Assembly: GCA_034420195.1 (NCBI GenBank)
Contig: DAOULO010000050.1
Span: 1 to 54,652, forward strand
DNA: 54,652 nucleotides
Direction: 5' to 3'
Source of the DNA: Dehalococcoidales bacterium
Lineage (GTDB): Bacteria; Chloroflexota; Dehalococcoidia; Dehalococcoidales; RBG-16-60-22
The notes beneath the pieces are model-generated. The model was not told the origin of the DNA. It did no database searches and worked only from the letters and a program-made list of their open reading frames with translations. How positions within the stretch are numbered: position 1 is the first letter of the stretch; every line of letters starts with the position of its first letter. Made by a program: the position numbers and the translations under genes. Of the stretch, positions 2,461 to 29,998 are shown in pieces.

Positions 2461-2525
2461 TATTTTTATCCGCCCTGTCGGTCACCGGGCCGCTTCGGGA
2501 CAATCCTGAAGGTATCCGGGTGAAG

Positions 2526-3308
2526 CTAGCTCCGCTCCAGCTGCGAGCCGCCGGAGATATCGGAATCGCCCAGGGTGGGATTGCCGCTGTAATCGACCCG
2601 GGAGGCCCCGCTCAGGTTGACGTCCAGCCGCCCGCTGATGTCCAGGCTGGCGTGGCTGGCCCCGCTGAGGACGATATCGGCGTCCCCGACGGGGAAGTCC
2701 GCCAGTTTGGCGCGGCTGGCCCCAGAGCCTTCCAGCCGCAGGTCGCCGCCGGAGCCTTCCAGTTCAATCCGGCTGGCGCCGGAGAGGACGATATCGGTAG
2801 CCGTGGCCGCCAGGCTCCCGGTGAGCTGGCTGGCCCCGGATAGTTCCGCGCTGAATTCGCCGGTCTCCATATCCAGGTCAAGGCGGCTGGCCCCGGTGAG
2901 CTGGACATCTAAATCCTGGCCGGAGGCAAAACCGCTGGCGTCGGCCTGCGCCGCGCCGGAGAGCTCCAGCCCCCGTAGCTCGGGCATGGTTATCGTCGCC
3001 TGACCGGAATGGCTGAAGTTGAGGAAGAAACCTTGCAGGTCTATCTCGAGGGTGTCGCCGTGCTGCGCGACATTGATGTGGTCAAAGAGGCCCTCCCGGG
3101 CCGTGATGGCCACGCTGTACGTGTCCGCCCGGGTCACCGTCAGCTCGAAGGCGTCCCCGATTTCGATGCGGGTAAAATCGCTAAAGTCGTACGACCGGGT
3201 GGTAATCGGGCCCTCTACTTCCTCGATGAGCACCCTCTCGCAGCTAACCAGTGGTATCAATAAGGCCAGCGCCAGAACGATGGCCAAAATCGCGCCTTTT
3301 CTTTTCAT
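2526..3308 (-). CDS. Lipoprotein with DUF2807/GIN-type (putative adhesin head) repeats
   Basis: I trimmed the 292-aa ORF to an internal ATG at 3308, which follows AAGGAGGA. The protein starts MKRKGAILAIVLALALLIPLVSC, with a lipobox Cys. It has iterated SGAS[RQH]x repeats (SGASRLDL, SGASQLTG, SGASRIEL, SGASRAKL, SGASHASL, SGASRVDY). Confidence 0.7.
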   Translation of the reverse strand: MKRKGAILAIVLALALLIPLVSCERVLIEEVEGPITTRSYDFSDFTRIEIGDAFELTVTRADTYSVAITAREGLFDHINVAQHGDTLEIDLQGFFLNFSHSGQATITMPELRGLELSGAAQADASGFASGQDLDVQLTGASRLDLDMETGEFSAELSGASQLTGSLAATATDIVLSGASRIELEGSGGDLRLEGSGASRAKLADFPVGDADIVLSGASHASLDISGRLDVNLSGASRVDYSGNPTLGDSDISGGSQLERS

Positions 3309-7269: not shown

Positions 7270-7374
7270 AAGAGGGGCGAAGCCCCTCTTAATTAATAAA
7301 TCCCCCTCTCCAGACAAAATGACAGTGGGTAAGCTATTACTCCAGTTTGGAGAGGGGGACACAGGGGGTGAGGT
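7270..7374 (+). repeat. Family-D double-hairpin repeat (copy 1)
   Basis: Hairpin 1 is AAGAGGGGCGAAGCCCCTCTT. Hairpin 2 is TCCCCCTCTCC..N37..GGAGAGGGGGA. The tail is CACAGGGGGTGAGGT. The same order is seen at 29914-29998, and inverted at 17494-17576. Confidence 0.8.
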
Positions 7375-7405: not shown

Positions 7406-8644
7406 CTACCCCCCCAAAAACTGCAGCCCGCTGATGTAAATCCCGGTGATGATGGCGGTGGTAATCACGCCGGCCACGCACGGCCCCATGGCGAAGGGCA
7501 GTATCATCGCCCGCTTGTTCACCTGGAGGGCGCACTTCTGGGCGACCTTGGCGGTGGTGGGCACGCAGGATACAGCCGCCAGGCCCAGCAGGGGGTTAAA
7601 GGGTTTCTTGGTAATTTTGCCGAAGATTAAGCCGCCGGCGATGCCGCCCAGCCCGGAGAGCGTCAGGGCGATGACGCCCAGGGCCAGCAGCAGCAGCACC
7701 TTGGGGTTGAGGATGATGTCCACGCCGAGGAGGGCCCCCAGCGTGAAGCCCAGGAAGAGGGTCGAGCCGTAGAGGAGCGGCCCGGAGAGGAACTCCACGA
7801 AGCGGGTGATGCCCGCCTCCTTGACGGCCAGCCCCAGGAAGAAGGAGGCGAAGAGCGGCGTGGCCACCGGGAAGAGGAAGGCCAGCAGGGTAAAGGTGGC
7901 GATGCAGAAGGCGAACTTGGCCCCGGCGGGCACCTGGGGGATGGTGCGCCAGTCCATCTCCACCTTGCGCAGGCGCTTGGGGATGATGCGCGCCAGGAAG
8001 GGGAAACCGGCGTAGCAGATGCCCAGGTAGACGTAGGCCACCACCGTTATGGGCACGAAGAGGTCGGGGGCCATTCGCAGCGAGCCGTAGAGCACCATCG
8101 GCCCGTCGGCCCCGCCGACCAGGGCGATGGACGCCGCCTCGTTGGGGAGGAGGCCCATGCCCATGGCGATGGGCAGCGTGGCGATGGTGCCCAGCTCGGC
8201 GAAGACGGCCAGAAAGAGGCTCATGCCGGGGCGGGCCAGCAAAATATCAATATCCGTGATGGCGCCGATGCCCATAAAGACCAGGCAGGCGATGAGGCCG
8301 TTAGAGAACATGAAGGTGTAGACGGGCTGCAGGAAATCCACCTGGAGAAAGTACATCAGCTCGTTGAGGTTGCTGAGGGGGTTGGCGAAGAGGTTCCCGA
8401 TGGTGATGCCGGACGGGGTGGTTATGAGGCCGCTGACGTAGCTTGTCTCCAGAACCATCAGGCCGGCGTTGACGGCAATCATGCCGATGCCCAGCGGCAG
8501 CATGATGAGGGGCTCCAGGACTTTCTTATAAGAAAGATAGATAAAGAGAATCCCCAGGGCCACCAGCAACAGCCGCCCGATGACGATATCCGGCTCGGTG
8601 ATGGTGAAGGTATAGAGACCCTGGAAGAACTCTAAAAAGAACAT
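7406..8644 (-). CDS. Sodium ion-translocating decarboxylase, beta subunit (OadB/GcdB/MmdB family)
   Basis: 412 aa and polytopic. Family-typical blocks are YKKVLEPLIMLPLGIGMI, MGIGAITD, IALVGGADGP, and NPLLGLAAVSCVPTTAKVAQK...MGPCVAGVITTAI. Confidence 0.9.
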   Translation of the reverse strand: MFFLEFFQGLYTFTITEPDIVIGRLLLVALGILFIYLSYKKVLEPLIMLPLGIGMIAVNAGLMVLETSYVSGLITTPSGITIGNLFANPLSNLNELMYFLQVDFLQPVYTFMFSNGLIACLVFMGIGAITDIDILLARPGMSLFLAVFAELGTIATLPIAMGMGLLPNEAASIALVGGADGPMVLYGSLRMAPDLFVPITVVAYVYLGICYAGFPFLARIIPKRLRKVEMDWRTIPQVPAGAKFAFCIATFTLLAFLFPVATPLFASFFLGLAVKEAGITRFVEFLSGPLLYGSTLFLGFTLGALLGVDIILNPKVLLLLALGVIALTLSGLGGIAGGLIFGKITKKPFNPLLGLAAVSCVPTTAKVAQKCALQVNKRAMILPFAMGPCVAGVITTAIITGIYISGLQFLGG

Positions 8645-11775: not shown

Positions 11776-11900
11776 GCCTCCTGGCAGTGGCATATTTTCC
11801 ACAAAGGGTTACCCCCTCAGTATCGTCTGCGCTGGGGCGTTTCACTTCCGTGTTCGGGATGGGAACGGGTGGGGCCACCCCGCTCTAACCACCAGGAGGC
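11776..11900 (-). rRNA. rrf: 5S ribosomal RNA (orphan; no 16S/23S nearby)
   Basis: The reverse complement reads GCCTCCTGGTGGTTAGAGCGGGGTGGCCCCACCCGTTCCCATCCCGAACACGGAAGTGAAACGCCCCAGCGCAGACGATACTGAGGGGGTAACCC...CCACTGCCAGGAGGC. This includes the universal CCGAACACGGAAGT loop and a closing helix I (CCTCCTGG / CCAGGAGG). A T5 run follows the 3' end. Confidence 0.85.
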
Positions 11901-14984: not shown

Positions 14985-16367
14985 TTAGCTTTCGGTATCG
15001 TCCGGCTTGTCCGCCTCGTCCGGCGCCTCTTTTATCTGCCGGCGGGCCTTCATCTGGTCGAGCACCTGCCGCTCGTAGCCCAGCTTGCCGGGCATGTAGA
15101 AGCGTTTGCCCTTGAGGGCGTCGGGCAGGTGCTGCTGCTCCACAAAATGGTCGGGGTAGTCGTGGGCGTATTTATAGCCTTCCCCGACGCCCATCTCCCG
15201 GTCCAGCTTGGTGACGGGGTTGCGCAGGTGGTTGGGCACCGTTTCGCTGGCGCCGCCCTTGATTTGCTCGCGCACGCGGTTATAGGCCACGTAGAGGGAG
15301 TTGCTCTTGGAGGCGGTGGCCAGGTAAACGGCCGCCTCGGCCAGGGCCAGGTTGCCCTCCGGCATGCCGATAAAGTGCACCGCCTGCTGGGCGGCCATGG
15401 CGATGACCAGCGCCTGGGGGTCGGCCATGCCCACGTCTTCTGAGGCGAAGCGCACCAGACGGCGGGCGATGTAGAGGGGGTCTTCGCCTGCCTCCAGCAT
15501 CATCGTCAGCCAGTAGATGGTGGCGTCCGGGTCGGAGTCGCGCATCGATTTGTGCAGCGCCGAGATGAGGCCGTAGTGCTGGTCGCCGGCCTTGTCGTAG
15601 GCAATCGCCCGTCGTTGCAGGACATCCTCGATGGTGGGCAGGGTGACCAGGCGCCGCCCCTCTTCGTCGGGGGTGGTGCTCAGGGCCGCCGTCTCCAGCG
15701 TGTTGAGGGCGACGCGGGCGTCCTGGTTGGCCCCGGCGATGAGGTGGTTCATAGCGTCCGGGGCCAGCTCGGCGTTGAGCGCGCCGATGCCCTGGAACTT
15801 GTCCTTGAGCGCCCGCAGGATGAGCGTCTGTATCTCCTCGCCGGTGAGAGGCTTGAGGGGGAGAACGCGGGTGCGCGAGAGCAGCGGCGAGGTGACCTCA
15901 AAGGAGGGGTTTTCCGTGGTGGCCCCGATGAGGGTGACGGTGCCGTCCTCGACGTAGGGCAGGACGGCGTCCTGCTGGGTCTTGTTGAAGCGGTGAATCT
16001 CGTCGATGAAGAGGATGGTCTTCTGGAGGCGTGCCTGGCGCCGCTCGGCCGCCTGCTGGACGATGCGGCGCAGGTCGCTGACGGAGGCGCTGACGGCGCT
16101 GACCGGGGCGAAGTGGGCGCCGGTGGTGTTGGCGATGATATAGGCCAGGGTGGTCTTGCCGCAGCCGGGCGGGCCCCAGAGAATCACCGAGGGGATGCGG
16201 TCGCTCTCAATGGCGCGGCGCAGCACGCGCCCCTTGCCGATGATGTGCTCCTGCCCCACGAAGGTATGCAGGCTGTTGGGGCGCATGCGGGTGGCCAAAG
16301 GGGCGTTGAGGGCCGATTCCTGGCCTTCCCCTTTACTTTCCGGCTGGGCGAACATGTCCATGCTCAT
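14985..16367 (-). CDS. rarA: Replication-associated recombination protein A (AAA ATPase RarA/MgsA)
   Basis: 460 aa. It has the Walker A motif LWGPPGCGKTT, Walker B LFIDEIHRFNK, and the MgsA C-terminal block DQHYGLISALHKSMRDSDPDA.IYWL. Confidence 0.93.
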   Translation of the reverse strand: MSMDMFAQPESKGEGQESALNAPLATRMRPNSLHTFVGQEHIIGKGRVLRRAIESDRIPSVILWGPPGCGKTTLAYIIANTTGAHFAPVSAVSASVSDLRRIVQQAAERRQARLQKTILFIDEIHRFNKTQQDAVLPYVEDGTVTLIGATTENPSFEVTSPLLSRTRVLPLKPLTGEEIQTLILRALKDKFQGIGALNAELAPDAMNHLIAGANQDARVALNTLETAALSTTPDEEGRRLVTLPTIEDVLQRRAIAYDKAGDQHYGLISALHKSMRDSDPDATIYWLTMMLEAGEDPLYIARRLVRFASEDVGMADPQALVIAMAAQQAVHFIGMPEGNLALAEAAVYLATASKSNSLYVAYNRVREQIKGGASETVPNHLRNPVTKLDREMGVGEGYKYAHDYPDHFVEQQHLPDALKGKRFYMPGKLGYERQVLDQMKARRQIKEAPDEADKPDDTES

Positions 16368-16447
16368 GGCTCTTACCTGCTCCGGGGTTTTTGGCCCCTT
16401 ATCAATTTACCCTATATCGGTATATTTATCCAGCTTTTTGTTAAGAA

Positions 16448-16522
16448 CCCCATCACCTCCCCCTCGGTGTTATCTATTCCCACCCGGCCGCCTTCTAGCG
16501 GCGGCGCCTTCGGGGCGGAGGG
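16448..16522 (+). repeat. Family-A REP/BIME-like unit (solo, 3' half diverged)
   Basis: CCCCATCACCTCCCCCTC..GTTATCTATTCCCACCCGGCCGCC... It contains the stop codon and the last roughly 10 codons of the 16495-17466 ORF. Confidence 0.65.
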
Positions 16523-17466
16523 GAATACCGTCTTTTTGATGGCAGCCTGCTGTCGCTGGCCCGCTTTTCGATATTGCCCATTTTCTCGTCCGTATCCTTT
16601 ATCTCTCCGGGGGCTTCTACCGCCCCGGCATCTTTCCCGATTTTCTCGATGGTCTTGATGGCTTCGGCGCCGGTCAGCCTTTTCTTTCTGGCCAGCCGCT
16701 TGGCTAGGGCGATACACTGCTGGCGGGTTGCTCCTTGGCGGAAAAGCCGGTCGCTCAAGCCATCCCGCTTCCCGTACAGCCAGGCGGCCACGGTTCTGGG
16801 CTCCAAACTCCGGGACGACAGGAGGTATCCGTCCCAGCCGGTCTGGCGGATAAACCGGTCTCGGAGTTCCGTGATGAACCCGGCGGTAAGCTGTTTCTCC
16901 TTAAATTGTTTTCGGCTCTCGCCGGCGAGATAGGATTGGAGCGGCTCCGGGTACTGGCTCACCGGGTCGGTCGGTTGCGGTATCAGTACGTCGATAAGGC
17001 AGGCCATTACCCCCTGGGTGTTTTTGCCAGATAACCCTATTATTTTGCAGATATCCCCTACGTCTTCACTCGCCCTGGCCACAAATGCCCCCAGGCCGGC
17101 GCGCCTCTCGTACTTTTCGGTCTTCAGGTATGGGGCCAGGGTTTCTTCGGCAACCCATCCGGCCAGTAAGACATCGGCAATCTTGCCGATTTCGATGGCG
17201 AGGTTCCGGGTCGCTTCGTCGGCGGAGTCCTTTATTTTCTCATCGAGGCTGAGGTCGGGGAAGGCCCGGTTGTTAATCAGGTCCAGATTGATGATGTCTG
17301 CCCTCGATTCCCGCAGGATGGCCCTGGCTCCGGCCGACAATTCCGGGAGGGCAATCTCGGTGCTGCCTTTTTCTTTCTCGATGTAGACCTCTTTGATTTC
17401 AAAGCCATGAGCCGCGGCCATGACGGCGTGACCGGCTTCGTGAACGGCGATGGTGTCCAGTTTCAT
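16495..17466 (-). CDS. Stand-alone FtsH/M41-like zinc metallopeptidase-domain protein with an uncharacterised C-terminal half
   Basis: 323 aa. The N-terminus MKLDTIAVHEAGHAVMAAAHG carries the HEAGH zinc site in the FtsH-type context. LLAGWVAEETL downstream resembles the FtsH LLGGRAAEE helix. There is no AAA module and no TM helix. The ATG follows GAGGAGAAAGGGAA. By eye, GC is lower than in the flanking genes. The C-terminal tail runs into a repeat unit. Confidence 0.55.
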   Translation of the reverse strand: MKLDTIAVHEAGHAVMAAAHGFEIKEVYIEKEKGSTEIALPELSAGARAILRESRADIINLDLINNRAFPDLSLDEKIKDSADEATRNLAIEIGKIADVLLAGWVAEETLAPYLKTEKYERRAGLGAFVARASEDVGDICKIIGLSGKNTQGVMACLIDVLIPQPTDPVSQYPEPLQSYLAGESRKQFKEKQLTAGFITELRDRFIRQTGWDGYLLSSRSLEPRTVAAWLYGKRDGLSDRLFRQGATRQQCIALAKRLARKKRLTGAEAIKTIEKIGKDAGAVEAPGEIKDTDEKMGNIEKRASDSRLPSKRRYSPPPRRRRR

Positions 17467-17493
17467 TTCCCTTTCTCCTCAGCCTCCTTTTTT

Positions 17494-17576
17494 ACCTCAC
17501 CCCCTGTGTCCCCCTCTCCTGGCGAGGCGTGCCGCAGGAGAGGGGGAGGTTTAGGGAGAGGGGCTGCGCCCCTCTT
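17494..17576 (-). repeat. Family-D double-hairpin repeat (copy 3, inverted)
   Basis: ACCTCACCCCCTGTG-TCCCCCTCTCC..GGAGAGGGGGA..GAGAGGGGCTGCGCCCCTCTT is the reverse complement of the arrangement at 7270-7374. It lies between the HEPN-like gene stop and the peptidase gene RBS. Confidence 0.8.
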
Positions 17577-17588
17577 AGATGTCCTGCT

Positions 17589-18353
17589 TTATTGAACCAC
17601 AAAGCTTCCAATATCTGACCAATATCCAGGAGCGATTGGCATTATAGGCCTTACTCGCCAAAAATAGGTCATGTTTTCACCAGTAGTTGCCTCGTATTTA
17701 AATGTTGTATTTCTAATACTGTTACTACCTGTTGCATTAACGACTGGAATTGGAAAGTCAGGACTCGTAGCAATTAGTAATTCATACGCTACAGCGTTAG
17801 GGACTTCTTGCCAAACTAATTCTATTTTCCCATCCGAAATTACTGCTCCATTAGGAGGAGATATTAGTACTGTTTGACGAATGTGCAGAGAAAACTTATA
17901 TACTAAATAAACGACTGATTCAATGTAATTGGCTACATCCTCAATTTTTGGTATGTCGATTTGTTCGTTATCAATTTTGAGTCCCTTTCTATCTATTTGC
18001 CTTTTAATTCTTTCAAGAGAATCTTGTGTTTTACCTTTATGCCAATAAGAATGTACGAATTGATTCCTCTTTTCGTTTACGTTTGTAACCTGCGAGAACA
18101 TTTCCTTAGCGTAATTTGGTAAGTCGTCATCTCGCCCGATGTTATATTTTTGCATATATAATGCTTTTAACATAGCTAATAAACGTGAAAATGCTAATCC
18201 TGCTGTAACAACGCTCGCGCCTTCTATTCCCATTAAAATATTGATGCAATCTATTATTAGTTCTTCAATCAATCCAAACTTAACAGTAATCTTGCCCATT
18301 GCCTTGATAAAGGCTTCATTATAAATTATCTTCTCTTGATACGGTTTCTTCAT
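17589..18353 (-). CDS. AT-rich foreign gene: HEPN-like N-terminal domain (RNQFVH) fused to an S-layer-stalk-type beta-sandwich domain
   Basis: 254 aa with no signal peptide or TM helix. The helical N-terminal half contains NEKRNQFVHSYW, which fits the HEPN Rx4H motif with Asn after Arg. About 90 C-terminal aa (ISPPNGAV...VWQEVPNAVAYELLIATSPDF...TYFWRVRP...YWSDIGSFVV) align with the stalk domains of both large surface proteins. Sampled 60-nt lines are 28-32% GC, against 68% just outside. Confidence 0.6.
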   Translation of the reverse strand: MKKPYQEKIIYNEAFIKAMGKITVKFGLIEELIIDCINILMGIEGASVVTAGLAFSRLLAMLKALYMQKYNIGRDDDLPNYAKEMFSQVTNVNEKRNQFVHSYWHKGKTQDSLERIKRQIDRKGLKIDNEQIDIPKIEDVANYIESVVYLVYKFSLHIRQTVLISPPNGAVISDGKIELVWQEVPNAVAYELLIATSPDFPIPVVNATGSNSIRNTTFKYEATTGENMTYFWRVRPIMPIAPGYWSDIGSFVVQ

Positions 18354-18377
18354 TAACTAAATTTTCTCTCCTCCCCC

Positions 18378-19691
18378 TCACTTATACCTCTTAACTTCAA
18401 ATCTATAAAGCTCCACCGGCTCGTCCGGGCCGATGCCGCCCTTCTGGCGGCAAATCTCAATCTGCTGCGCGGCGGTGTCCACGCCCTCCAGGTCGGGCAG
18501 GAGCAGGCCGCGCTGCCAGCCGGCGGCGACGATGACGCCGTACTTGCTGGGGTCGAGTGAGCTTTCGTCTTTTATCTTTTCGGGCGGGGTGAGCACGTCC
18601 ACGCTGTAGTCCAAATCGGCCAGCTCGTCGGGGGTGATAGCGTTGAAGCGGGGGTCGCGAGTGGCCGAGCTGACGGCGTTGGTGATAATTTCCTCGGCCA
18701 CGTTGGGCTGCTGCGGCTCGAAGGTGCCGATGCAGCCGCGCAGCGCCCCGCGCTTGTGGATGGAGACAAAGACCCCGGCCTGCGCCCGCATCTCTGGGGT
18801 GAGGGTCTGGGGGGGTGGGGGCGTACGACCCTCCCGGACGTAGCTTTCCACGGTCGCTTTAGCCAGCTCCACCAGGGGATGGCGCGCCGCCTTGAAGATG
18901 ACCCCGGCGTAGCCGACGACGGCGTCGTAGTCGCCGGTGGTGTCGCCGCTGGTCTGGTACTTCACCAGCTCGGCGCCGCTGGCCCCCAGCTCTCTGGCGG
19001 CGGTTATCAGCGCGACCACCGGCCCGTGGGCGCACATGGAGATGTTCAGTGCCTCGTAGCGGCGGGTAAGCTCGTCGGCGTCGAGGGCGAGCATGGCCTC
19101 AATGGCGGCCCGGTCCTTCTTCTCGGCGACGGCCTGCGGCTCGTAGTGGGTCATGTCGCCGCTGGCGATGATTACCGCCTCGCGTTTTAATTTCTGCATG
19201 GCCTTGGCGATGCCCTGGCCGACCTCCTGGTAGGCCTGAGCGGGGGCGTGGGCCAGGATGATGGGGACGATTCGGATATCCGGCTGGAAATACTGCAGGA
19301 AGGGCAGCTGCACCTCCACGGCGTGCTCCTGGCGATGGGCGGCCTCGTCGGCCTCGGCGTACTTGGAGGCGGCGATAATCCCCTGCGCCAGCTCGGTATC
19401 GGTCTTGACGTCGCCCAGGGGCGTGCGCCACGTTCCCTCGGCCATGACGCTGAAGGGCTTGCCCAGGCCACTGTGGCTGGGCCCCATGATGACGAAGGTC
19501 TCCTTGAACTTGAGGCGGGAGACGACCGCCCCGGCCACCGCCCCGGAATAGGGGTAGCCGGCGTGGGGCAGCAGCGCGCCGACGGCGTCCTCTTTAGGCG
19601 CCTGCTTATCAATAAACACCTCCAACATTTCGCGGATTTCGGTCGCCGAGCCGGGGTAGTACCGCCCGGCGGCGTAAGGATTTCTTATCAT
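18378..19691 (-). CDS. AmmeMemoRadiSam system protein B (Memo-like) fused to protein A (AMMECR1 domain)
   Basis: I trimmed the ORF to the ATG at 19691 ([14 protein letters not shown]...). The Memo block is [11 protein letters not shown]. The C-terminal AMMECR1 block is [21 protein letters not shown]. The start abuts the stop of the radical SAM gene. Confidence 0.88.
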
Positions 19692-19692
19692 C

Positions 19693-20718
19693 TCACCCCT
19701 CCCTGGGGCGGAAATTGAGCTCCGCCCCGCACGACCGGCATTTGGAGCCGTTAAGCCCCCCGGCATCCGTTTCGTAGCCGTACCTCTTCACGGCAGCCTT
19801 ACCGCAGGCCGGGCAGCGGGTGCTCTCGCTCTGGTGGCCGGGGACGTTGCCGGCGTAAACGAACTTGAGCCCCGCCTTTTCCCCGATGGTGACGGCCCGC
19901 TCGATGGTCTCCAGGGGGGTGGGCGGCAGGTGGGTGAGGTGGTGGTGGGGGTGGAAGCGGGTGACGTGCCAGGGAGTCAGCTCGCCCAGGTTATCGTGTA
20001 TCCACCCGGCGATGCCGCCAAGCTGCGTCTCGTCGTCGTTCATGGTGGGGATGATGTTGGTGACCACCTCCACGTGCATGTCCCACTTGTCCTTGGCCCG
20101 CCGGGTAACGTCCAGAATCTCGCGCCAGTGGGGAATGCCCGCCAGCTGTTTATAAAACTCGTCGGAGAAGCCCTTGATGTCCACCCGCCAGGCGTCCAGG
20201 TAGGGGCCGATGGTATCCAGCGCCTCCGGGGTGGCGTAGCCGTTGGTCACGTAGACAGTGTAGAGACCGGCCTCCTTGGCCAGTTTGGCCGATTCCAGCG
20301 TGTGCTCCAGCCAGATGACCGGCTCGTTGTAGGTCCAGGCCATGCCCCGGCAGCCGTATTTTTGGGCCAGCGCCACCGATTGCTCGGGGGAAAGCTCGCG
20401 GCAGCCGTGGCTGAGGGCGCTGCCGTCGGCGGTGGAGATTTCCCAGTTCTGGCAGTGCTTGCAGTGGAAGTTGCAGCCCAGCGTCCCCAGCGAGAAACAG
20501 AGCGTGCCGGGGTAAAAGTGGAAGAGGGGTTTCTTCTCGATAGGGTCGGCGGCCAGGGACGAGACCCGCCCGTAGTTGAGGTTATTGAGGGTGCCGTCCT
20601 GGTTCTGGTACATGCCGCAGACGCCGTATTTGCCCGGATTGATGCGGCAGCGCCACTGGCAGGTTGAGCACCTTACCCTGGAGTCCGGCAGTTTTTCGTA
20701 AAGCACGGCCTCGCGCAT
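19693..20718 (-). CDS. AmmeMemoRadiSam system radical SAM enzyme
   Basis: 341 aa. The radical SAM cluster motif is [11 protein letters not shown]. An N-terminal Cys-rich segment ([17 protein letters not shown]) and C-terminal CPACG...CRSCG are typical of this family. Confidence 0.9.
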
Positions 20719-29913: not shown

Positions 29914-29998
29914 AAGAGGGGTGAAGCCCCTCTTTTTTATAAATTCCCCCTCTCCTGCGGGACGCCTTGTCAGGAGAGGGGGATACAGGGGGTGAGGT
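29914..29998 (+). repeat. Family-D double-hairpin repeat (copy 2)
   Basis: AAGAGGGGTGAAGCCCCTCTT, then TCCCCCTCTCC..N17..GGAGAGGGGGA, then TACAGGGGGTGAGGT. Confidence 0.8.

Follow-up and report, generated by a model that had tools for sequence, protein, structure and literature searches.

A predicted stand-alone M41 (FtsH-type) zinc peptidase of a Dehalococcoidales bacterium and its rare ATPase-less relatives

We examined a gene at 16495–17466 in a stretch of 54,652 nt from a Dehalococcoidales bacterium of the phylum Chloroflexota (GenBank assembly GCA_034420195.1, contig DAOULO010000050.1, positions 1 to 54,652 of the forward strand); this whole stretch is called the window below. An initial annotation, made from the letters alone, had taken the gene product for an FtsH/M41-like zinc peptidase with neither an AAA+ module nor a membrane anchor, and evidence from profile-profile comparison, sequence-to-PDB matching and fold comparison now bears this out. 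Judged by its sequence, the protein is a member of a tiny and very rare family of ATPase-less M41-type proteins. The gene is read in the same direction as an AT-rich gene just upstream, for which a functional partnership had been proposed, and it is followed by the AAA+ gene rarA. The features of the locus are collected in Table 1.

Table 1. Features of the peptidase locus, with positions counted in the window
Feature	Coordinates	Strand	Basis
Stand-alone M41 (FtsH-type) predicted zinc peptidase gene	16495..17466	-	Open reading frame, 323 aa; hhalign, PDB profile, Foldseek
HEXXH motif, predicted zinc-binding, with putative catalytic Glu; codons H9-E10-A-G-H13	17428..17442	-	Family conservation, MAFFT columns
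Counterpart of the FtsH GGRxAEE helix; codons A102-G-W-V-A-E107-E108	17143..17163	-	Family conservation, MAFFT columns
Predicted third zinc ligand D135 in A-x-x-D-[IVL] motif; codons R131-A-S-E-D135-V-G-D-I139	17050..17076	-	Alignment inference
M41 C-terminal helices ALAKRLARKKRLTGAEAIKTIEK; codons ~245-281	16624..16732	-	pLDDT, FtsH/FTSH12 alignment, conservation
Window-specific, predicted disordered Arg/Lys-rich tail; codons 282-323	16498..16623	-	pLDDT, absence in relatives
Right-hand copy of 26-nt imperfect direct repeat, core GAGGGGGAGG	16453..16478	.	Repeat family D1, 73% identity; partner 18367-18392
Spacer with double-hairpin REP-like element (~17500-17575), then ribosome-binding site of the peptidase gene	17467..17588	.	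Fold, repeat copies
AT-rich orphan gene, initially 'HEPN-like'; N-terminal helical part with RNQFVH, C-terminal FN3-like module; partnership with peptidase not borne out	17589..18353	-	GC, family scans

The 323-codon open reading frame (ORF) is intact, its product begins with MKLDTIAVHEAGHAVMAAAHG, and a GAGGAG ribosome-binding site stands 9 nt 5′ of its ATG. The HEXXH motif follows only 8 residues from the N-terminus, and a Pfam scan gives no AAA match in the protein. No transmembrane segment is present: the maximal Kyte-Doolittle hydropathy over 19 residues is 1.28, as against 2.32 for Escherichia coli FtsH, and the relatives described below reach 1.08–1.63. The ORF is thus a genuine gene, for a soluble protein with no AAA+ module or membrane anchor.

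Homology to the M41 peptidases was examined with hhalign, using as query the profile of a six-sequence family alignment (A1, the window protein and its five relatives) and as reference the aligned sequences of 13 authentic M41 domains, taken from E. coli FtsH and 12 diverse plasmid- or phage-borne FtsH copies. In local mode the two profiles match with a probability of 96.9% and E = 1.4e-10, residues 4–275 aligning with M41 positions 17–203 of 206, and in global mode with 98.1% and E = 5e-13; controls, one reversed and five column-shuffled, gave P values of at least 0.055. The profile comparison shows what we take to be a single divergent M41 domain of residues ~4–275, homologous across the whole domain including the C-terminal helices. 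About 170 residues that had been set aside as being of unknown function are therefore the remainder of the M41 domain together with two lineage-specific insertions that interrupt it (residues ~40–95 and ~145–225). Part of the second insertion is common only to the window protein and the relative P0006.

A search of the PDB with the family profile returned seven matches at E ≤ 10, all of them FtsH, YME1 or FTSH12 chains, the best (0.017) being 2DI4, and the C-terminal block is among the segments aligned. The single peptidase sequence found nothing in the PDB. The AlphaFold2 model built from the six-sequence alignment has a mean predicted local distance difference test score (pLDDT) of 63 and a predicted template modelling score of 0.65, with confident regions at residues 1–60, 84–110, 125–160 and 223–278, and residues 250–270 are modelled at pLDDT 92–95. 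When this model was compared with the PDB by Foldseek, the top 28 matches were all of the FtsH family (probability 0.94–1.0), and in a viral structure library the only high-probability matches were again FtsH-family proteins.

In combined MAFFT alignments, run in three modes, H9, E10, H13, E107 and D135 share columns with H417, E418, H421, E479 and D495 of E. coli FtsH (numbered as in the literature, 4 lower than the annotated positions). The segment LLAGWVAEETL had been likened to the LLGGRAAEE helix of FtsH, and the likeness holds in both the profile and the MAFFT alignments, where LLAGWVAEE lies against the GGRxAEE helix. The segment ALAKRLARKKRLTGAEAIKTIEK aligns with the C-terminal FtsH helix L..LLEKETL.G.E. 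A basic helical C-terminus had been noted as a possible nucleic-acid-binding element; the basic helix proves to be this M41 helix, which explains the segment better than a HeH/SAP-like nucleic-acid-binding domain, an idea that was rejected. Only a basic extension of residues 281–323, predicted to be disordered, is additional; it is not found in the relatives, is modelled at pLDDT ~30, holds 13 Lys and Arg against 7 Asp and Glu, and ends in PPPRRRRR.

Scans against NCBIfam, PADLOC and PHROGs placed the peptidase in no significant family. The relatives, and a viral protein described below, give M41 matches in Pfam of 13–17 bits, under the PF01434 cut-off of 29.9. Sub-threshold matches to M50 and M50B models (15.9–17.9 bits against cut-offs of 26–27) cover residues 3–79 and concern only the HEXXH helix. 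Membership in M50 or in M78 (ImmA/IrrE) was rejected, there being no match to PF06114, only sub-threshold M50 matches and no transmembrane segment, with profile and fold evidence pointing to M41. The profile searches called for at the outset thus came out divided: neither the Pfam M41 nor the M78 model is matched, and M41 is recognised by profile-profile comparison.

Relatives were sought with the single window sequence by phmmer against 1.84 billion cluster representatives. Five true distant relatives were found (P0004, P0005, P0006, P0008 and P0009), with lengths of 227–318 aa and an identity of 27–30% to the window protein; one more match, the sixth, was a spurious repeat protein and was excluded from the family, and no FtsH was among the matches. 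Since this exhaustive search used a single sequence and not a profile, the family may exceed six clusters. Word-indexed searches, with the single sequence or with a profile, gave only the window protein itself and P0006, and tblastn against phage and plasmid collections found nothing. A profile-based locus scan of genomes and metagenomes was dominated by ordinary FtsH HEAGH matches and confirmed no member. The DNA pattern for D-V-x-L-A-G-W-x-A-E-E hit no viral contig; its 12 loci all came from genomes and metagenomes, and none of them proved to be a member when judged by hidden Markov model. We found no natural bacterial ATPase-less M41 family described in the literature searched, a statement that applies to that literature only.

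Four blocks are conserved in alignment A1: A-I-H-E-A-G-H, D-V-x-L-A-G-W-x-A-E-E, R-A-x-x-D-I-x-x-I-C and, near the C-terminus, L-A-K-x-L-x-K-K-K-R-L-S-G-x-E. The family-invariant residues are A102, G103, A106, E107 and E108; R131, A132, D135 and I139; and K261, L264, G266 and E268. The HEAGH residues, whose conservation had been named as a check on the peptidase assignment, are kept in five of the six members, and so are the catalytic columns as a whole, the exception being a change of H9 to Arg in P0009. Four of the five relatives start, like the window protein, a few residues before HEXXH, whereas P0006 in its called form is 44 residues longer at the N-terminus, perhaps because its start was mis-called.

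A further ATPase-less M41-like protein, of 239 aa, is encoded on a viral contig of 118 kb (L003; IMGVR_UViG_3300047313_000057, 7758–8477, forward strand). It matches M41 by hhalign at 89.6% (E = 1.9e-6) and has HEAGH, the AE helix and the Asp, with the catalytic columns present; the scan used here found no relative of it in IMG/VR other than itself. The ATPase-less M41 theme is thus not unique to the window family, and the separate viral lineage suggests that it arose more than once.

The family members have no recurring neighbour: across the five contexts other than the window, no neighbouring gene resembles any other. P0004 (L004) has upstream a 65-aa ORF and a gene for a partial protein of 226 aa that is unrelated; P0006 is on a 16-kb contig whose genes are unannotated; P0008 (L006) is the sole gene of a short contig; and P0009 (L007) is flanked by a ComEC-like gene and a zinc-ribbon gene. 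P0005 (L005; GCA_040961635.1, JBFOMZ010003454.1, 191–9503; gene at 2473–3288) has upstream a fragment with insertion sequence IS1 and helix-turn-helix character and downstream a convergent gene for a 499-aa serine recombinase, after which comes a run of small ORFs without annotation. About 5 kb from P0005 is the gene of a 380-aa protein whose PADLOC match (PDLC00733, 2e-13) is TIR-like, and the locus has the look of a mobile element that has integrated and carries defence-type genes.

Composition sets several of these genes apart. The guanine-plus-cytosine (GC) content is 63% for the genome of the window; it is 0.587 for the peptidase gene (0.72 at third codon positions, GC3) and 0.64–0.67 for the flanking housekeeping genes (GC3 0.85–0.90), in agreement with an early impression by eye that the gene lies below its surroundings. 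The family gene is likewise below its flanks at L005 (0.40 against 0.49) and at L007 (0.55 against 0.71). Low GC in these three loci, with the recombinase and the insertion sequence of L005, fits a horizontally moving accessory gene; the members are best read as genes standing alone on DNA that is mobile or of atypical composition, and the window gene as a horizontally acquired accessory gene.

The peptidase gene and its upstream neighbour make up a low-GC unit at ~16368–18370, between the stop codon of a Memo/AMMECR1 gene and the start of rarA. Two copies of the 26-nt imperfect direct repeat bracket the unit. The 10-mer core GAGGGGGAGG of the repeat occurs four times in the window where 0.4 would be expected, three of the four being in the 2-kb locus and one of them at 17540–17549; the repeat pair may be an insertion scar. 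That the two genes are co-directional and separated by a double hairpin, as first described, is correct, and the 122-nt spacer is predicted to fold into two hairpins. The hairpin element, however, is a dispersed genomic repeat and not specific to a module: this repetitive extragenic palindromic (REP)-like element of ~85 nt, made up of the arms CCCCCTCTCCTG and CAGGAGAGGGGG around a 13-nt loop together with GAGGGGCTNCNCCCCTC, is found between genes at no fewer than three places in the window (7272–7313, 17500–17575 and 29916–29982). An independent Logan assembly (L002) breaks within the second of these, at 17517. An Rfam scan of 14–21 kb gave no match.

The upstream neighbour begins 24 nt past the Memo/AMMECR1 stop codon and has a GC of 0.35 and a GC3 of 0.29. 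Only its residues 161–254 find a relative, as one FN3-like module that is repeated three times in the metagenomic protein P0003, whose precomputed Pfam matches include fn3 and a Por secretion tail. The N-terminal helical part has no detectable relatives, and the protein matches nothing among the Pfam HEPN families, PADLOC, NCBIfam or PHROGs. The HEPN-like label, a tentative one, rests on one Rx4H motif, RNQFVH at residue 96 inside a predicted helix; a motif of the type Rx4-6H appears in 29% of shuffles of this protein, and of 17 proteins inspected from the neighbourhoods and the family it is present in 10. A single-sequence AlphaFold2 model of the neighbour (pLDDT 43) was unusable.

Further out, rarA (14985–16367) lies 127 nt downstream of the peptidase gene and encodes a complete MgsA-type RarA protein (Pfam MgsA_C, 7e-67). 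Directly upstream of the low-GC unit, on the reverse strand, a radical-SAM gene (19693–20718) overlaps a gene of AmmeMemoRadiSam type (18378–19766) in which Memo and AMMECR1 are fused as one protein of 462 aa (or 437 aa). Elsewhere in the window a lone 5S rRNA gene was found at 11779–11896 (reverse strand; Rfam, 91 bits), without an adjacent 23S rRNA gene, and no tRNA genes were found in the whole 54.6 kb.

We think it probable that the window gene encodes a horizontally acquired, soluble, ATP-independent and probably oligomeric M41 peptidase that acts as no half of a two-gene module. In such an enzyme H9, H13 and D135 would be the zinc ligands, E10 the general base and E107 the equivalent of E479 of FtsH. 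Hexamers can form from isolated protease domains of bacterial FtsH, and in the FtsH complex the protease domains make up a rigid disk (PMC9020784); the window protein may likewise assemble with itself through its conserved M41 C-terminal helices. It would then work as a metallo-endopeptidase on substrates that need no unfolding, a restriction that follows from its having no unfoldase: peptides, disordered segments, or a single protein as its specific target.

Several observations weigh against this proposal. The Pfam scan of the window protein gives no M41 match at E ≤ 1. The Foldseek E-values are modest (5e-3) and the TM-scores low (~0.3), which reflects 123 model residues with pLDDT below 50. 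The hhalign register is shifted by 7 residues at D135, so that the assignment of this residue depends on the alignment; we favour the MAFFT register because there the A-x-x-D-[IL] motif and the family-invariant positions coincide with M41 invariants, and D135 is accordingly given as a predicted third ligand. P0009 (L007 1031–1714) has REAGH for HEAGH, losing the first zinc ligand and keeping the other conserved blocks; it may be a pseudo-protease, or the change may stem from faulty sequencing or assembly, and it hints that catalysis is perhaps dispensable in at least one member. The contexts are six in all, three of them 2.3 kb or shorter. Canonical M41 sites are supplied with substrate by the AAA+ ring. 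Soluble catalytic domains of YME1L show low intrinsic oligomerisation (bioRxiv 10.1101/2025.01.30.635686). With canonical sites fed in this way and YME1L oligomerising poorly, self-assembly and ATP-independent activity are put forward here only as proposals.

Among the other explanations, a two-gene toxin or abortive-infection module had been suggested first, in which the upstream gene would encode a HEPN RNase and the metallopeptidase would gate or neutralise it. The genes are adjacent and co-directional, both are below the genome GC, the RNQFVH motif falls in a predicted helix, and the GAGGGGGAGG-centred repeat brackets the two together. We nevertheless consider a module of this kind very unlikely: a homologue of the neighbour, or any recurring neighbour, is found beside none of the five other members, neither protein is matched in PADLOC, the motif is as common in shuffled sequence as noted above, and the neighbour has an FN3-like C-terminus as in a protein with secretion-tail matches. 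The dispersed double hairpin lies between the genes, and their codon composition (GC3 0.29 against 0.72) suggests separate histories and acquisitions. A working link to the radical-SAM and Memo-AMMECR1 operon, downstream of which the peptidase gene stands on the same strand, strikes us as highly improbable. It has a precedent in peptide-processing modules that couple zincin metallopeptidases to radical-SAM enzymes related to Memo-AMMECR1 (PMC7159879), and the window protein would be a peptidase of that sort; but no radical-SAM, Memo or AMMECR1 gene occurs in the other family contexts, no small precursor-peptide gene is evident, the AT-rich gene and the REP-like element intervene, and the operon has a GC3 of 0.85–0.88 where the peptidase gene has 0.72.

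We give next to no credence to the ORF being a degraded ftsH, or half of a split FtsH that acts in trans with rarA, even though an M41 domain is as a rule preceded by an AAA+ module and rarA is an AAA+ gene close downstream. Full-length E. coli FtsH, used as tblastn query, detects no remains of an AAA+ module in the DNA around any family member, its sole match being the Walker A region of the intact rarA; RarA is a complete protein of its own type and is absent from the other contexts. The window frame is whole and well provided with a ribosome-binding site, and five relatives at 27–30% identity keep the architecture and, barring the extension of P0006, the start. The pseudogene reading, which had been named as what might undo the peptidase claim, is refuted by the intact frame, the conserved relatives and the lack of AAA remnants. 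A mimic or decoy of FtsH seems to us less remote, though still improbable. The free M41 domain would dock onto the protease disk of the host FtsH, or co-assemble with it, and poison or borrow its AAA+ motor to the benefit of a mobile element; phage lambda cIII, which interferes with FtsH, offers a comparison. No part of the protein is better conserved or modelled with more confidence than the M41 C-terminal oligomerisation helices, several members lie in mobile or atypical-GC contexts, and P0009, without one zinc ligand and otherwise conserved, would fit a non-catalytic role. The protease domain also helps to select protomer partners in FtsH complexes (PMC9020784). Yet the mimic is proposed from sequence and context and not from direct evidence of interaction, the divergence that keeps FtsH out of the phmmer matches makes a compatible interface doubtful, and a pure decoy would not need the catalytic residues that five of the six members keep.

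A soluble M41 peptidase acting without a motor thus remains the preferred reading. A bolder extension of it, which we hold to be unlikely but worth stating, is that ATPase-less M41 peptidases on mobile DNA form a natural class, with the window protein as its founding example. Its members would be either ATP-independent FtsH-type proteases, the first of their sort, with a substrate-access mechanism of their own that the two insertions perhaps provide, or mimics of the FtsH disk that poison or hijack host FtsH.

M41 domains are the textbook case of proteases that are compartmentalised and fed by ATP, and their catalytic disk is thought to depend on the fused AAA+ motor for its substrates. A natural, conserved family that has the M41 catalytic residues and neither motor nor anchor raises the questions of how substrates would reach the site and why the genes are on mobile DNA. 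If such proteins are active alone, the mechanistic range of the M41 fold is widened; if they engage the host FtsH, mobile elements have a new route for tampering with an essential protease. The idea of a protease paired with a HEPN protein is not supported, and the family is tiny on present evidence.

Among known systems the closest are FtsH, Yme1 and AFG3L2 (MEROPS M41, PF01434), to which the window protein is homologous over the whole peptidase domain and which, as the FtsH family, supply all of its best fold matches. Shared elements are the HEXXH helix followed by a beta-hairpin, the G-x-x-A-E-E helix, the A-x-x-D motif of the third ligand and the C-terminal helix 'L..ETL.G.E'. Unlike them it lacks the AAA+ module, the transmembrane helices and the periplasmic domain, carries two insertions and a disordered basic tail, and falls below the Pfam M41 threshold; its gene is a solitary accessory of atypical composition, whereas FtsH is an essential housekeeping protein. 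In domain content it is the same as isolated FtsH protease-domain constructs, such as that of Aquifex aeolicus (PDB 2DI4), of the kind that can form hexamers (PMC9020784), but these are laboratory truncations and not natural genes, and they have neither its insertions nor its tail.

ImmA/IrrE (M78) and the M50 site-2 proteases share with the window protein a short HEXXH-bearing helix; the M50 enzymes, however, are polytopic membrane proteins, and the window protein has no transmembrane segment. The viral protein of L003 resembles it in being stand-alone (239 aa) and on mobile DNA, with H-E-x-x-H, AE helix and Asp, but belongs to a separate lineage, its alignment with the window family extending no further than the first 35 residues around HEAGH, and has a ~75-aa N-terminal extension and no insertions. 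Reuse of M41 outside its canonical arrangement is also known in plants, from the FtsHi pseudo-proteases and the extra M41 domains of FtsH7/9 (PMC9020784, PMC8197885), and the REAGH of P0009 has its parallel in FtsHi, where the zinc site is lost. FtsHi proteins keep the AAA+ module and the membrane anchor and have mostly lost HEXXH, whereas the window protein presents the opposite case, with the ATPase lost and the catalytic site kept.

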